A stretch of DNA of 49,967 nucleotides, taken from a virus. Taxonomy: Duplodnaviria > Caudoviricetes. A model generated the notes under the pieces. The model was not told the origin of the DNA, did no database searches, and saw nothing but the letters and a program-made list of their open reading frames with translations. The translations under genes were made by a program, and so were the position numbers. The DNA is taken from the IMG/VR virus record IMGVR_UViG_3300026123_000400, positions 1-49,967 of that record; one strand, 5' to 3'. Of this stretch, positions 2,655-27,549 are shown piece after piece. Position 1 is the first letter of the stretch, and every line of letters begins with the position of its first letter.

Positions 2655-5495
2655 ATGGCTACAGTAGTACAAAGATTTGCCGAAGGCGCATATGTTATCA
2701 CCGCAGATGGTGAAGAGATTCCAGTATATGAGGGTATGGAGATATACCCTGATGACATTATTGTTGGTGAAGTCGCCACAATAGAAATCGCTGATGAGGC
2801 AGTGGCAGCACAAGACCCAGGTGCTGACCCATCAACTATCCCAATAGATGATATTGCCGCATTACAACAAGCAATCTTAGAGGGTGCTGACCCTACTCAA
2901 GTAGGTGAAAGAACAGCCGCAGGTGCGCCGGCAGCAGGAGGACCAACAGCAGATGGTGGTGGTTCATCATTCGTTACGCTTGACAGAAGCGGAGCAGAAG
3001 TTGACCCTACTGCTGGCTACGAAACAACTACTTTTAATGCTGAAGTTCAGCAAACGCAAGAAGAACCACCAGCGCTAGTTGAACCAGAAGTAGTTGAACC
3101 AACACCTGAACCAATCGTAACAGTTACCACAGAAACTCGCACTGATGTTCGTACTGAAACTGAAACAAAAACAGTGGTCGGTGACGAATATGAAACTGGT
3201 CGTACAACTGAAACAAGTAGTGAAACAACTACAGATGAAACTGGTACAACTGTTACCACAACAACTGTAACAACAATCACATACGATAAAGAAACTAACA
3301 CCGTTACAACAACCACAACGATTACAGAAACATACGAGCGTGAAGTAACCACTACAGAATATCCAAGTGGTCAAACAACTGTAACGCTTGGTGAATGGAC
3401 ACTAACGGATACACAGACTGATACTCAAACTGAAACAACAACCACTAACGAACCTCGTGAGCAAGTTGTTGAAGATGTTGACACTGAGTTTACGCCAGTT
3501 GAGCCAGAAGAGCCTACTGTTACTGTAACTAAAGAATACGATGTTGTTACTAATACAGAATCTACCGTAGAAACTGTGGTTGGTGATGAGTACGAAACAG
3601 GTCGTAATACAACAACTGATGTATCAGAAGTTGCGACAGACCGTGGTCAGTTGGTAACAACAACTACCACAACTACAACTACAATCACATACAACCAAGA
3701 AACAAACACAATCACAACTAATGTAACTACAACGGAATACTATGAGCGTGATGTAACTACGACTACATATCCAGATGGAACAACCGAAGTAGTTAATAGT
3801 GAATGGACAATGTATGATTCTGCTACAGACACAAGTTCAACTACAGACACCGTAGAAACACCACGCACTGAGGTTCTAACTGATGTAGCAGTGGATGAGG
3901 TACGATTTGAGCCTACAGTAGAGACTGTCACAGAGACTAAAGAAGAGGTTGATGTACAAACCACAACTGAAACTGTTGTAGGTGATGAATATGAAACTGG
4001 TCGTACAACTGATACTGATGTAAATGAAGAAACAACAGACCGTGGTCAACTTGTTACTAAGACAACTACCACGACTACAACTGTTTCGTACAACCAAGAA
4101 ACTGACACAGTTGAAACCACGACTACTACCACGACTACATACAGTAGAGATATTACAACCACTACTTACCCTGACGGTACAACTGATGTAGTAACAACTG
4201 ATTGGGAACAAACAGGTCAAACAAGTGATGTTACTGAATCAACTGATACAGTAGAAACACCTCGTACCGAAGTACTAACTGATGTAGCGGTAGAAGAAAC
4301 TCGTTTTGAGCCTACTGTTGAGACTATCACCGAGACCAAAGAAGAAGTTGATGTACAAACTAAAACTGAAACAAATGTAGGTGATGAATACGAAACTGGT
4401 CGTACAACTGAAACAACTTCAAATAAAGTAACAAGCGAAGATGGTACAAAAGAAACTACTACCACTACAACTACTACAACCGTTTCGTACAATCAAGTTA
4501 CAGACACGTTAACAACTACAACGACTACCACTACGGCATACAGTAGAGATATTACAACCACTACATATCCAGATGGTAGCAAAGATGTAGCAACAACTGA
4601 TTGGGCACAAACAGGACAAACAACTGATGTTGATACAGTAACAGACACAGTAGAAACTCCACGCCAAGAAGTACTAACAGAGGATGTGGTTGATGTAAAT
4701 CTTCTACCAGTTGCTGAAGATGACACATACGAAACAGACGAAGATACACCAGTAAGCGGTGATGTTTCTGACAACGATACAGACGGTGACGGCACAAGCA
4801 CATTCTCGTTAATTGGTGAAGATATACCAGGACTGGTGTTTAGCGACAATGGTGAATTCACATATACGCCAAGTGACGAAGATGGTGACCAGATTGTAAC
4901 ATTTGATTATCGTATTACGGATGAAGACGGTGAATACAGTGACGCTACTGTGACTATTAATGTTGAAGATGTACTTGCTCCAGAAGAGCCAGAAGAGTTA
5001 GGTCAATGGTTTTTCTCACAAGGAGGCAACGAAGTACAACCTGGTTACGACTATGAGTTAGTAACAGATGGCAAGAAAAATGACCACATGGAAATCAATG
5101 TACAGAACAAGCAACTTGGTGAGCACCGTGTTGATATAGGTGATGCTGTTAAGTTTACTATTGCGGTATCCGGTGATGCTGAATATGAAACAGATTACAC
5201 ATTAAACATGGTTAGTAAGTCACCACAAGTTAATATTGATAGTTGGTCACTTGACAGCGGCACTCTTTCGGTAGTAATATCAACCACTAAAGATGGCTTT
5301 AACTTGTCGGGCAGCACATTTGCTATTGAAGTAACTTCTGTTAACGAAGGCGCTGATGTAGGTGTTGAGTTTGATATTACAAGTGTAGTACATTATGATG
5401 CGAGTGCGAACCAAGACATTGTGATGGGCACATGGGAATCAAACGATGATGTGTTGATTGGATTGATTGACCCTAACTTTACTGATAGCGTGTAA
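2655..5495 (+). CDS. LapA-like retention-module protein with four Thr-rich repeats and a cadherin/Ig-like domain
   Basis: DIAALQQAILEGADPT..TAAG..GGSSFVTLDR..PTAGYET; VGDEYETGR x4; PVAEDDTYETDEDTPVSGDVSDND..GEFTYTP..ATVTINV. Confidence 0.85.
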   Translation: MATVVQRFAEGAYVITADGEEIPVYEGMEIYPDDIIVGEVATIEIADEAVAAQDPGADPSTIPIDDIAALQQAILEGADPTQVGERTAAGAPAAGGPTADGGGSSFVTLDRSGAEVDPTAGYETTTFNAEVQQTQEEPPALVEPEVVEPTPEPIVTVTTETRTDVRTETETKTVVGDEYETGRTTETSSETTTDETGTTVTTTTVTTITYDKETNTVTTTTTITETYEREVTTTEYPSGQTTVTLGEWTLTDTQTDTQTETTTTNEPREQVVEDVDTEFTPVEPEEPTVTVTKEYDVVTNTESTVETVVGDEYETGRNTTTDVSEVATDRGQLVTTTTTTTTTITYNQETNTITTNVTTTEYYERDVTTTTYPDGTTEVVNSEWTMYDSATDTSSTTDTVETPRTEVLTDVAVDEVRFEPTVETVTETKEEVDVQTTTETVVGDEYETGRTTDTDVNEETTDRGQLVTKTTTTTTTVSYNQETDTVETTTTTTTTYSRDITTTTYPDGTTDVVTTDWEQTGQTSDVTESTDTVETPRTEVLTDVAVEETRFEPTVETITETKEEVDVQTKTETNVGDEYETGRTTETTSNKVTSEDGTKETTTTTTTTTVSYNQVTDTLTTTTTTTTAYSRDITTTTYPDGSKDVATTDWAQTGQTTDVDTVTDTVETPRQEVLTEDVVDVNLLPVAEDDTYETDEDTPVSGDVSDNDTDGDGTSTFSLIGEDIPGLVFSDNGEFTYTPSDEDGDQIVTFDYRITDEDGEYSDATVTINVEDVLAPEEPEELGQWFFSQGGNEVQPGYDYELVTDGKKNDHMEINVQNKQLGEHRVDIGDAVKFTIAVSGDAEYETDYTLNMVSKSPQVNIDSWSLDSGTLSVVISTTKDGFNLSGSTFAIEVTSVNEGADVGVEFDITSVVHYDASANQDIVMGTWESNDDVLIGLIDPNFTDSV
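3110..4700 (+). repeat. four tandem ~400-nt (133-134 aa) intragenic repeats
   Basis: GDEYETGR codons start at 3180, 3582, 3981 and 4380 (spacing 402/399/399); outer boundaries are approximate. Confidence 0.9.
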
Positions 5496-7218: not shown

Positions 7219-7482
7219 ATGATTAAACATGAACTAGACTTTAGTAACGGCGCCGTCGTAGTAGGACACTACAAATATCCAAAATGTCCATCCTGCGACA
7301 GCGCCAAAGAACTCTTAAAAGAGAACGATATACAGTACACATTTGTACAAGCAGACAAAAAACTATTTGGCAAGGTTATGGGTGTAACCAAGCAAATTAC
7401 TGTACCACAAATATTTATCAATGGTGAATTTATTGGTGGTTACGAAGAACTAGAAACTAAACTAAAAGGAGAAAAACAATGA
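7219..7482 (+). CDS. glutaredoxin
   Basis: [19 protein letters not shown]. Confidence 0.93.
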
Positions 7483-8030
7483 TAGGCAAACAAGTACCAC
7501 AAGTAACATTTAAATACCGTGTTCGTACAGACGGACATGATATCTGCTACGTAAACCCAGACAATGGTGGTGAAAACCCTTTTGAATGGAAAGACGTAAC
7601 AACTGATGATATCTTTGCAGGCAAGAAAGTAATCGTATTCTCACTACCAGGAGCATACACTCCAACTTGCTCTGCTTCGCACTTACCTAGATACGAAGAA
7701 TTGTATTCTGAATTTAAAGAACTGGGAGTAGATGAAATCTACGTTCTATCAGTAAACGATACATTCGTTATGCGTAAGTGGATGATTGATCAAAAAGCAA
7801 CCAACGTAAAATTTATTCCCGATGGTTCTGGAATATTCACTGAAGGAATGGGAATGCTGGTAGATAAAGATAATCTAGGTTTTGGTAAACGATCTTGGAG
7901 ATATTCTATGTTAGTTGATGATAGAGTAGTTGAGAAGATGTTCATTGAAGATGGTAAAATGGATAATTGTCCGACAGATCCATATGAGGTATCTGACGCA
8001 GACACAATGTTATCATATTTAAAATCTTAA
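7479..8030 (+). CDS. peroxiredoxin (Prx5/redoxin type)
   Basis: [31 protein letters not shown]. Confidence 0.95.
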
Positions 8031-8038
8031 TGTTTGGC

Positions 8039-8067
8039 AATAGAGAGGCTATCTAAGCCTCTCTATT
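8039..8067. terminator. hairpin between the convergent prx and endonuclease genes
   Basis: AATAGAGAGGCT-atcta-AGCCTCTCTATT, 12-bp stem. Confidence 0.7.
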
Positions 8068-8951
8068 TGTTCATTTATCCAATCATCTGATTTATTCGGC
8101 CAACCCTTTCCTAATTTTACTTTTTTTCTTTTTGCCAAAGCACGTAACTCCACGACATTATCTCTATTTCGTAATTTAGTAACAGAGTTAGTCATTGCTT
8201 CAACTGCGGTCGTCCAAACATTTTCTTGCCAATCTGTGCGACTCTTTGTTTCCAATTCTTTTTGCTTTGCCTCTGAACCTATAGTCTCCTTCCACAATGG
8301 GTCATTTTTTGTGTCGGACACTTTTTGGTTTCTAACCAATCCAACATTTTTCATCCAGTCTGAATCGGAGTAGCATTCTTTTTGCTTTCTAATTCTCTCT
8401 ATTCCTTTAGATGCTTTCCACTCAGAAGAATTTACTGTTTCCTTAATTTTTCTCAATGCCTCCTTTCCAGTAGTTTCTTTCCACAATGGGTCGTTTTTTG
8501 TGTCAGATATTTTTTGATTTATATGTAATTGTTTTACTTTCCATTGGTTTGAAGATTTTGTTTCCATTAGTCGTTGGTATTGTAAGTCTGAACATCCGCC
8601 GTCCAATCCATTTTCAATTTTGAGATTTGCCCATATAATCGAGTTAACAATATCGTTTTCTATACTGAATCTTATTGCTACTTTTTGTAATGTTATTGGG
8701 CAACAGTAAGGTTCAGAGACCCAGAGTAATTCTGGGTTACCATGGTGCTTGATAAAATCTTTCCATACTTTGCCAGACCCGTGATAGTTTTCATAATCAT
8801 CTTGCGTAGTTTTATGGAAATAAAACACACTTGAACCATCATTTCTGATAATTCTTCTTATCATAAGTCGCGTTGGTTTGAATAATGAGTTATTATATGT
8901 ATAATTTACTTGACTTTCCACAAGTGTGGATATACTATTATAAATAGACAT
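8049..8951 (-). CDS. GIY-YIG/Seg-like homing endonuclease with helical DNA-binding repeats
   Basis: FYFHKT..YHGSGKVW..WANLKIENGLDGG; repeated SDTKNDPLWKET; antisense orientation within a + strand operon. Confidence 0.75.
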   Translation of the reverse strand: MSIYNSISTLVESQVNYTYNNSLFKPTRLMIRRIIRNDGSSVFYFHKTTQDDYENYHGSGKVWKDFIKHHGNPELLWVSEPYCCPITLQKVAIRFSIENDIVNSIIWANLKIENGLDGGCSDLQYQRLMETKSSNQWKVKQLHINQKISDTKNDPLWKETTGKEALRKIKETVNSSEWKASKGIERIRKQKECYSDSDWMKNVGLVRNQKVSDTKNDPLWKETIGSEAKQKELETKSRTDWQENVWTTAVEAMTNSVTKLRNRDNVVELRALAKRKKVKLGKGWPNKSDDWINEQIERLR

Positions 8952-9020
8952 GCTGATAGTTCCTTATTAACTGTTAGAGTAGTCGGATATTGGCGTATCG
9001 CGGGCTACACTTTTATTTAT
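8910..9020 (+). ncRNA. conserved antisense promoter and two-hairpin RNA module, copy 1
   Basis: TTGACT-N17-TACTAT, TATAAATA, two stems that need G-U pairs on the + strand, U-rich tail; near-identical to 27341-27448. Confidence 0.65.
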
Positions 9021-9022
9021 CT

Positions 9023-9166
9023 TTCGGCAAACGTTCATGGCGTTACGCTATGGTGGTAGAAGACGGTGTAGTAACACACATGTTTGAAGAGCCAGGCAAG
9101 TCTGACAATCATCCAGAAGACCCATACGGTGTATCAGCACCAGAAAACGTACTAGCAAATATTTAA
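9023..9166 (+). pseudogene. orphan alternative peroxiredoxin C-terminus (47 aa)
   Basis: [47 protein letters not shown] parallels 7881-8030 but lacks the N-terminal catalytic part. Confidence 0.9.
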
Positions 9167-9178
9167 TAGGAGTATAAC

Positions 9179-25332: not shown

Positions 25333-26010
25333 TTACCATCTACACTTTTCTCCATTCAGACCATGCCACTTAGATATGTTTGCCTTTTGTCCTTCTTTGC
25401 CACATTTAGGACACACCGCAGATGCCCCAAATCCCGGATTACTATTCTTCGCTATATCTGACATTTTTTGTTTTGTTTCATCTGAATGAAATCGTGTGCT
25501 AGGGTCCCTCTTCTTCGCAGCATCAGATATGTTTCGTTTATGTTCTTCGGTGAATTTGATACCTTTGTTTCTTGAATGCCCTTTATTTGCTTCGGATATT
25601 CTTTGTTTTGTTTCTTCGGTATGTTTCTTTCCATAGAATGGATTGTCCGAACCTTTTCTTTTGGCTCCGTACATTCCATTTTTCTTTCCTTTCCTATCTT
25701 CGCTGTTAATCAGTCGATACTCGTCCTTATACTTTCCGTATGATCTAGAGTTATACAGTTTTCTTCCGGACATAAGAACATGAGCCGCAATCATCTTTCT
25801 ACGATGCTCCCCTTCCGTGAACTTAGGCAATAATAAATGACAAATGTAATGCTCTCTAGCAGTTAACGACACCAAGTTATCATCGGTGTCCTCTCCTCCT
25901 AGTGATCTTGGTATGATATGATGCCTCTCTGTGTAATCTTCAATAATACGATGCTTGGCGTTTTCTATGATTCTAAAATAACAATCATAATACTTATTTA
26001 ATATGAACAT
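25333..26010 (-). CDS. HNH homing endonuclease with NUMOD3 repeats
   Basis: YTERHHIIPRSLGG..NLVSLTAREHYICHLLL; NPFYGKKHTEETKQRIS; ATAAATA 5 nt before the ATG. Confidence 0.92.
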   Translation of the reverse strand: MFILNKYYDCYFRIIENAKHRIIEDYTERHHIIPRSLGGEDTDDNLVSLTAREHYICHLLLPKFTEGEHRRKMIAAHVLMSGRKLYNSRSYGKYKDEYRLINSEDRKGKKNGMYGAKRKGSDNPFYGKKHTEETKQRISEANKGHSRNKGIKFTEEHKRNISDAAKKRDPSTRFHSDETKQKMSDIAKNSNPGFGASAVCPKCGKEGQKANISKWHGLNGEKCRW

Positions 26011-26071
26011 AAATGTATTTATGTTAGAACTACTATTAGAGTGGGATACAGCAAAAAATTCAAAAAAACTG

Positions 26072-26130: not shown

Positions 26131-26706
26131 ATGAATAAAATAATTTTGAGTGACGTGGACGGTGTTCTCCTTGATTGGGAACTTGCTTTTCACAAGTGGA
26201 TGGAAGACAAAGGTTACACTGCTGCCGACAAATCACTTTACAAAATGAATGAAGCATACGACATTGAGAAAGCAGAAAGCAAACGACTTATTCGTGAGTT
26301 TAACGAAAGTGTGCGAATGCTTGACTTGCCTGCTTTTCGTGACGCTCGCAGTGGTGTTGCTCGGCTTGTCGAAGCGGGTTATCAGTTTATCGTTATCACT
26401 AGTATGAGCCTTGACCCAATGGCGAAGAAAGCCCGTGAGATTAACTTAGAAGCAGTGTTTGGTGAGAATGTGTTCGTAGAAGTTATCTGTTTAGACACAG
26501 GCGCTGACAAAGACGAAGCATTGATCCCATGGAAAGATAGTAACATCATCTTTATAGAAGATAAAGCAGAAAATGCTGTTACTGGTGCTGATATGGGTCT
26601 GCGAAGTATTCTGATTGAACACAAGCACAATGCTGAATGTGATGACCCGCGTATTGCTCGTTGTGCTGATTGGAAAGAAATTACTGACTTGATTCTCGCT
26701 GAATAA
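26131..26706 (+). CDS. HAD-family phosphatase (5'-nucleotidase-like)
   Basis: [21 protein letters not shown]. Confidence 0.88.
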
Positions 26707-27379
26707 TAATCCAATTACCTTTTTGCACACAACGATATCTAAACTGGGATACCGTCATGTTATTATATATGGCGGCTTCATTTACAGAATCAAACATTCT
26801 TCCGTCTGGTGATTTCACGTTCAATCTATTAGCAGGAATTTTGCCTTTTAGTGAGTTACTAATGTTCTCTCGTCCTTCTTTGCTGTGAGGTTTTCTTGTT
26901 TTTATTGTTCTTCCTGTGTAGTATTCTGGTGGATTCTCTCCTTCTGGAACATAAATGGTATTATCTCCATCTGTGTACCATTTTAGATTATTATCTGTTA
27001 CAGCACTTCTTCCATACATGCCATTTTTTTCTCCTGATCGGTCTAACTCTTTCATCGCTTTGATATAGTTAGGACTATGCGAGGTGTCCCCTCCCGTTCC
27101 TCCTTCTGTTATATTCAGCAAAATACCACCATCATCTATATTTTTTCTACCGTGAAGTTTTATGAGTCTTCTTTCAATTGCATATGCTCCAAGTTCTGTT
27201 AGCCATGATTCTAGTATGATTATGCGATTATGATCTGGTGGTAGATTAACTCTACCGTGTTTAACCCATGCTCGATCATCTTTACCTTTTCCTATGTAAT
27301 ATGGAGTTCCGTCTTTTCTTAGATACGCATAAACATAATATTGACATCCATGCGTGGAGGTGTTAGTATAAATACTCAT
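26681..27379 (-). CDS. GIY-YIG homing endonuclease with NUMOD motifs
   Basis: [35 protein letters not shown]; start MSIY with SD AGAGGA. Confidence 0.9.
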
Positions 27380-27448
27380 GCTGATAGTTCCTCTTAAACT
27401 GTTAGAGTAGTCAGATATTGGTGTATCGTGGACTACACTTTTATTTAT
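27341..27448 (+). ncRNA. conserved antisense promoter and two-hairpin RNA module, copy 2
   Basis: TTGACA-N17-TAGTAT overlapping TATAAATA; same stems as 8910-9020. Confidence 0.65.
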
Positions 27449-27549
27449 GCGTGGTGTACATAATGACTGTGAAGACAAGTTTGAAAATGCCATTACTGAC
27501 TTGATTCTCGCTGAATAATAAAAAATCTCTTTGTTAACTTTATCACATA

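Follow-up and report, generated by a model that had tools for sequence, protein, structure and literature searches.

Why do two phage nucleases that have little in common as proteins begin with nearly the same stretch of DNA? The question is raised by a 49,967-nt fragment of a tailed phage genome (Caudoviricetes; IMG/VR record IMGVR_UViG_3300026123_000400), here called the window, which encodes a clamp loader, an endolysin, PhoH, a peroxiredoxin and tail proteins. Among public sequencing runs its sequence was recovered in three freshwater DNA runs and in no listed RNA run; it belongs to an uncultured freshwater phage. An initial annotation noticed that 8949–9020 and 27377–27448 are near-identical, and proposed that both hold a structured cis-antisense RNA that covers the ribosome site of a nuclease gene, in the manner of IS10 RNA-OUT. 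More speculatively, it suggested that read-through into flanking DNA would give a guide RNA with a layout like that of TnpB.

Two Dissimilar Nucleases Share One Module

The two repeats agree at 65 of 72 bases, and a longer comparison (8921–9020 versus 27349–27448) gives 84% identity across 100 nt. A covariance model of the module (R1), run over the whole window, matches these two copies only. The proteins encoded beside them (Table 1) are as dissimilar as the annotation held: there is no BLASTP match between them at E 1e-3, and their profile probability is 9%. The family of nuclease 2 matches GIY-YIG chains at E 1.4e-5, and an N-terminal model of nuclease 1 matches viral GIY-YIG/Seg homing endonucleases. 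Nuclease 1 itself had no classifying match in Pfam, PHROGs, NCBIfam, PDB sequences or PDB Foldseek, and Foldseek against the PDB with both nucleases gave none at E 0.001. By these comparisons both proteins appear GIY-YIG-like, with an N-terminal GIY-YIG domain and a variable C-terminal part predicted to bind DNA. Near relatives of the two proteins in IMG/VR were limited to one near-identical contig.

Table 1. Features of the two nuclease elements and their modules in the window.
Feature	Position	Strand	Remarks
Peroxiredoxin (prx) gene	7479..8030	+	Present 3′ end arrived with the element
Perfect hairpin between prx stop and nuclease 1 stop	8039..8068		Putative, probable shared terminator
Nuclease 1, 300 aa, begins MSIY	8049..8951	-	Divergent GIY-YIG/Seg-like N-terminal domain, repeated C-terminal helical motifs
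Sigma70-like promoter, TTGACT-N17-TACTAT	8910..8938	+	Within 5′ codons of nuclease 1; 5-bp inverted repeat TCCAC/GTGGA in spacer
TATAAATA late-promoter-like box, copy 1	8939..8946	+	Predicted antisense start G8952 (-13..-6 rule)
Folded core, copy 1, 57 nt	8952..9008	+	Exact complement of predicted nuclease 1 5′ UTR
P1 of copy 1	8953-8977	+	Anti-SD UUCCUU 8960-8965 (AAGGAA on -); linker A 8978
P2 of copy 1	8979-9008	+	R / G-Y-G internal loop; loop UUGGCG
ATAAATA late-promoter-like box of nuclease 1	9014..9020	-	Predicted mRNA start 9008
Stranded old 3′ end of prx gene	9020..9169	+	Directly (2 nt) after copy 1 module
30-nt direct repeat, left copy	26680..26709	+	End of NT5C-like gene
Nuclease 2, 232 aa, begins MSIY	26681..27379	-	GIY-YIG family, YVYAY...YYIGKG
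Sigma70-like promoter, TTGACA-N17-TAGTAT	27341..27369	+	TCCA/TGGA in spacer
TATAAATA late-promoter-like box, copy 2	27367..27374	+	Predicted antisense start G27380
Folded core, copy 2, 57 nt	27380..27436	+	Internal loop A / G-U-G; P2 loop UUGGUG
ATAAATA box of nuclease 2	27442..27448	-	Predicted mRNA start 27436
30-nt direct repeat, right copy	27492..27521	+	

At copy 1, a contig in two freshwater DNA runs joins 7666 to 9035, that is, the 5′ part of the peroxiredoxin gene to its former end. Copy 2 sits between 30-nt direct repeats that are exact; the stretch from module to right repeat (27449–27491) leads, with no shift of frame, to the same C-terminal peptide. In each of the three runs contig depth drops at copy 2 relative to its flanks (14 versus 23, 18 versus 31 and 9 versus 14). 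The drop hints weakly at an allele free of the element, although contig depth gives no share of cells; no element-free joint at copy 2 was listed in these runs. The flank duplications and the replaced gene end are consistent with ordinary homing by a protein-targeted nuclease.

Other genes of the window deserve mention. A third nuclease, HNH/NUMOD3 (25333–26030, - strand), has no module, though its family has one elsewhere; ahead of it ATAAATA is followed after 5 nt by ATG, within a palindrome, which would give a leaderless late mRNA. An HNH-like ORF splits an iscU-like gene (359–1018 and 1039–1440, + strand, named by sequence resemblance), whose 5′ part lies near 291–405 and the rest after 1039, and an sdhB-like gene adjoins at 1675–2388. 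The + strand also encodes a Thr-rich protein of 946 aa with 133-aa repeats and no PHROG match (2655–5495).

The Module Heads Many Unrelated Phage Nuclease Genes

A first pattern search of IMG/VR returned one unrelated copy, ahead of a GIY-YIG gene. The core pattern was then found at 124 loci in 7 of the 64 parts of IMG/VR, from which about 1,200 stretches are estimated for the whole; looser patterns give estimates of 2,100 and 1,900. An ORF on the opposite strand is headed by 174 of 189 unique modules, and 3 of the other 15 have no flank. The complete genomes of three large phages contain 4, 4 and 13 copies, and 12 of the 13 module-headed ORFs in the last of these (G002) match nuclease clusters. 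Among 185,579 prokaryote species genomes there were five matches, all on MAG contigs, four of them shorter than 3 kb; these are probably mis-binned phage DNA. Diverged copies precede nuclease-like genes in the cultured phages OLIVR5/6, IG49, LG08 and RHph_I1_18 (MN988519, about 80290–80390). Three other module variants yielded no usable BLASTN match among cultured phages. The annotation had noted that a characterised Rfam family would remove the novelty: no match to Rfam 15 reaches the gathering score (0 in the window), the best near copy 1 has E 3.2, and none falls on the module in 20 related loci.

The N-terminal domains of the module-headed proteins form five larger clusters plus singletons. 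A profile scan of 40 of 104 proteins found HNH in 8, GIY-YIG/SegE in 7, NUMOD3 in 18 and nothing in 10, as well as one TnsA-like match that is weak and below the cut-off. For 25 of 95 modules the most similar other module heads a nuclease of the same family (22.9 expected by chance), and identical P2 sequences head both HNH and GIY-YIG genes. By these figures the module passes freely between nuclease families, HNH and GIY-YIG alike, and does not track them. Within the genomes G003 and G002 (loci L389–L409), modules ahead of different nuclease families share private variants, such as GTAGTC/GACTAC in all four G003 copies, which points to exchange or homogenisation of module copies inside a genome. 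Some ORFs are short, with NUMOD3 alone or no recognised catalytic domain (L060, L066, L134, L311 and L387); they are possible DNA-binding-only derivatives.

A Conserved Fold on the Antisense Strand

The hairpins had been said to pair fully on the + strand only, and they do favour it (-17.2 and -18.9 kcal/mol for the two copies on +, -8.9 and -12.1 on -). Because single-sequence folding z-scores are weak for both copies (-1.25 and -1.35), support for the fold was taken from relatives. In a blind scan that left the five-base arms of P2 free (123 unique matches, 50 of them overlapping the first set), all five positions paired in 121 of 123, with 35 different arm sequences; with shuffled partners the mean was 30 and the maximum 44. 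Read on the antisense strand, the non-Watson–Crick pairs were G-U in 26 cases and A-C in none. The single R:Y pair between two unpaired G followed the same rule (n = 121): G-C 87, G-U 24, A-U 10, A-C 0.

A second blind scan left the whole of P2 free. It yielded 123 matches, 116 of them canonical, with a 6-bp stem, an R / G-Y-G internal loop and an upper stem. Both unpaired G are present in all 116, the pair above the unpaired G covaries (G-C/C-G/A-U), and most of the other seven show the same fold by eye. Pair 5 of P1 is U-G in 48, U-A in 35, C-G in 10 and C-A in none of 109 anchored copies (9 of 118 were unanchored and excluded). Two-sided changes occur at 13 of 19 pairs and the covariation score was reached by 0 of 500 shuffles, these counts being inflated by the related sequences they take in. 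Covariation, for which the annotation had proposed a search, is present and is specific to the strand antisense to the nuclease, which is also the strand with the more stable fold in 177 of 182 copies. The excess of G-U over A-C would equally fit single-stranded DNA, not RNA alone.

Two features of the loops bear on function. UCC/CCU lies within P1 in 174 of 182 copies, with a mean unpaired probability of 0.78. The P2 loops are 6–7 nt long in 162 of 197, richer in GC than the flank (56 versus 36%) and mostly carried on a 4-bp stem; in 85 of 197 neither P2 loop has a YUNR motif. Some loops occur at similar frequency as reverse complements (TTGGCG 12 and CGCCAA 11, TTGCCG 8 and CGGCAA 7, TTCCCG 7 and CGGGAA 4), nine such pairs being found among related loci, which suggests frequent inversion of the hairpin loop.

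Facing Late-Promoter-Like Boxes

As the annotation had it, TATAAATA lies inside the MSIY codons of both nucleases, and ATAAATA, reading TATTTAT on the + strand, lies at the other end of each fold. The T4 late promoter box is described as occupying -13 to -6 relative to the start (PMC1524935). Facing TAAATA boxes and this rule together predict starts at both ends of the 57-nt core, so the RNA would complement the whole nuclease 5′ UTR, ribosome site included; the predicted leader is 52–66 nt, with the antisense core complementary throughout. The spacing recurs in the family. An antisense TAA[AG]TA, not part of the search pattern, stands 4–6 nt before the core in 106 of 121 copies (5 nt in 84). 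On the other side the base that follows TATTT after P2 is A in 120 of 121, and the gap between P2 and the sense box measures 5 nt in 74 and 3–4 nt in 43 of 121. At 104 loci with a complete ORF and flanks, the orientation of the right neighbour was assigned by a simple heuristic based on ORFs. The antisense box persists at all 24 loci with the neighbour co-oriented with the nuclease, so that the box has no host gene downstream, at 66 of 73 with it inverted and at all 7 unassigned. The motif [AT]TAAATA is enriched ahead of ORF starts in the window, with 16 of 30 cases on + no more than 130 nt upstream of an ORF on that strand (19% expected) and 2 of 15 on -; a Sigma70_r2 search for a late sigma factor gave 0 of 4 phage records. 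The cultured-phage copies are atypical, with the antisense box displaced or missing: OLIVR5 keeps the fold with no TAAATA ahead of it and in RHph_I1_18 12 nt separate box and core, their genomes holding one and three TATAAATA, respectively.

Two further elements of the original proposal survive as local features. The U-rich tract at the 3′ end is present in the window, but what the family conserves there is the TAAATA box and not a U-run, the longest T run after P2 being three or fewer in 91 of 123; an intrinsic U-tract terminator probably does not end the antisense RNA. Likewise, the + strand TTGAC-N-N17-TAnnnT promoter with an inverted repeat in its spacer is found at both copies, but among relatives just 10 of 104 have a sigma70 promoter, against 7 of 569 background windows, and as a family-wide feature it was rejected. 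In the window, the sigma70-like promoters at 8910, 26072 and 27341, three of nine on the + strand, have inverted repeats of 4–5 bp in the spacer.

A Proposed Cis-Antisense Brake and Its Alternatives

On balance we lean towards the view that the cassette makes a cis-antisense RNA of about 57 nt that restrains translation of the nuclease. Covariation, the facing boxes, the anti-SD and the retention of the antisense box speak for it; the U-tract end and the sigma70 promoter of the original claim do not stand for the family. Both TAAATA boxes would act as late promoters, presumably in dependence on gp55. Antisense transcription would begin a single base ahead of the nuclease start codon, and transcription of the nuclease at hairpin 2, at its far base; the predicted overlap of the two RNAs includes the ribosome-binding site, which faces the anti-SD in P1. 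The first contact may be made by the anti-SD loop that P1 exposes, or by kissing of the complementary, GC-richer P2 loops, with help from the two unpaired G. The resulting duplex would block initiation at the nuclease ribosome site, RNase III may cut it, and collision of facing polymerases may add to repression. In the window phage the sigma70 promoter could supply antisense RNA ahead of late transcription, and in inverted insertions read-through past the antisense RNA would probably serve downstream host genes too. With such a cassette, any toxic free-standing nuclease could be made late and in small amounts, and this would explain the cassette's spread and its homogenisation within genomes. 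Several observations weigh against this brake. Simple cis pairing needs neither the invariant G-Y-G loop, nor the CUG/UAG base, nor the one-A linker; there is no conserved terminator; many copies have no YUNR motif in either P2 loop; and the cultured examples are atypical.

Alternatively, an embedded replacement promoter could drive late read-through transcription of downstream host genes, the + strand fold shielding the 5′ end of that mRNA as its leader; the nuclease would then be affected, if at all, by collision of facing polymerases and not by RNA pairing. T4 homing endonucleases are described as holding embedded promoters for downstream genes (PMC2988022), the right neighbour lies on the + strand in 73 of 104 loci, and P1 begins one base past the predicted +1 with no conserved terminator to follow. 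A leader of this kind is hard to reconcile with retention of box and fold at all 24 loci with an opposite-pointing right neighbour, although that could still reflect inertia after recent insertion, and a 5′ stabiliser has no need of the fixed internal loop of P2. We consider this explanation unlikely, though it is the strongest of the competitors.

In another reading the antisense RNA is a ribonucleoprotein handle, in which a conserved phage or host protein on the G-Y-G loop and the base of P1 silences or processes nuclease leaders, possibly those of all cassette-bearing genes of one genome. The unpaired G are present in every canonical copy and the linker is near-fixed while adjacent pairs covary freely; genomes hold up to 13 copies; and each window RNA pairs with the leader of the other copy at -90 to -93 kcal/mol, compared with -111 to -116 for the cognate leader. 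However, bulges are known to speed antisense pairing without any protein, and we judge a protein partner distinctly unlikely. A bolder version, improbable to the same degree, sees a new phage small-RNA family in which a clade-wide protein on the G-Y-G loop polices resident and incoming homing endonucleases, the P2 loops being specificity groups; the complex would act through anti-Shine–Dalgarno and loop–loop pairing.

Still less probable is a role as DNA. The attC site is a folded single-stranded DNA recombination signal with an extrahelical G, and a similar signal might shuffle the cassette between nuclease genes. The G-T asymmetry is compatible with DNA, the module sits at the element edge with the old prx tail 2 nt beyond, P2 loops in both orientations would be a sign of DNA-hairpin inversion, and copies are homogenised within genomes. 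Yet predicted transcription starts fall at either end of the fold, and the far end of the elements has no conserved motif (best 8-mer in 6 of 104, 5 when shuffled).

Least probable of all, and rejected as very unlikely, is a guide scaffold for the nuclease with the read-through flank as spacer. TnpB reRNA is a structured RNA at the element end followed by flanking DNA, and a scaffold-then-flank layout is real at window copy 1, where the former prx end follows the module and read-through is plausible; the same junction is also expected for protein-targeted homing. Here the module lies on the opposite strand and at the opposite end relative to the ORF, and the proteins have DNA-binding modules of their own, including NUMOD3, a motif of protein-targeted homing endonucleases. 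The free swapping of the module among HNH genes, several GIY-YIG families and one TnsA-like gene argues against co-evolution with one RNA-binding nuclease family; the window has a related HNH gene with no module; and a duplicated flank is rare, found by DNA comparison at 4 of 104 loci and by protein comparison at about 5 of 106 (the script gave 6, one on the nuclease strand).

Comparison With Known Controls of Nuclease Genes

On comparison of sequence and structure, the module appears homologous to none of the known systems so compared, and no description of it was found in the literature searched. The closest in arrangement is RNA-OUT of IS10, described as a short cis-antisense hairpin RNA from a facing promoter that pairs with the 5′ end of the mRNA for a mobile element's enzyme and blocks its ribosome site (PMC4737173). 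Facing promoters and overlap with the 5′ end of such an mRNA, both predicted here, would be common to the two. Unlike RNA-OUT, the module has two hairpins and phage late-type boxes and is portable on many unrelated nuclease genes; its predicted overlap is confined to the 5′ UTR.

Antisense RNA is also recorded for a phage homing endonuclease. In the T4-like cyanophage S-PM2, CfrI overlaps the beginning of such a gene, one that encodes a free-standing homing endonuclease (PMC2984593). At about 200 nt it covers the end of psbA and the first codons of the nuclease, unlike the ~57-nt core of the module; model R1 had no match in the 25-kb CfrI region, and the CfrI sequence is without the module motif. 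In the EcoRI (Rna0) and Eco29kI systems, a reverse promoter in the endonuclease gene makes an antisense RNA in a convergent promoter loop (PMC3874152). The reverse promoter and antisense restraint on a toxic nuclease, predicted here, resemble the module, whereas the two systems, as PMC3874152 presents them, are single-system cases with host sigma70 promoters and no conserved portable fold.

Other controls act on the mRNA itself. The genes for I-TevI, I-TevII, I-TevIII, segB and Aeh1 mobE are described as having mRNA hairpins that sequester a late promoter or RBS (PMC2988022), and fractured-gene nucleases of the GOS data as having 5′ UTR hairpins with TATAAATA (PMC2677866). A structured leader, a late promoter and late, low expression are features that the module would share with both (PMC2988022, PMC2677866). 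In the descriptions given there, these hairpins form in the mRNA and include the promoter, whereas the module favours the opposite strand and its boxes flank the fold. Some motifs of PMC2677866 may overlap the module. A motif search of supplements 3–6 of PMC10690425 found none, and the module may be among the unnamed candidates of that study.

Significance for Phage Homing Endonucleases

The module is a real, abundant and strand-specific structured element, absent from Rfam and apparently undescribed. Cis-antisense control is itself known; a portable cassette for it is apparently undescribed. The known controls of phage homing endonucleases are mRNA hairpins, autorepression and one antisense RNA, CfrI, whose function is unknown. 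If the cis-antisense brake is correct, a cassette of about 80 bp would be a general means by which large phages tolerate toxic selfish nucleases, and an abundant RNA family, with up to 13 copies per genome, would have been missing from Rfam.
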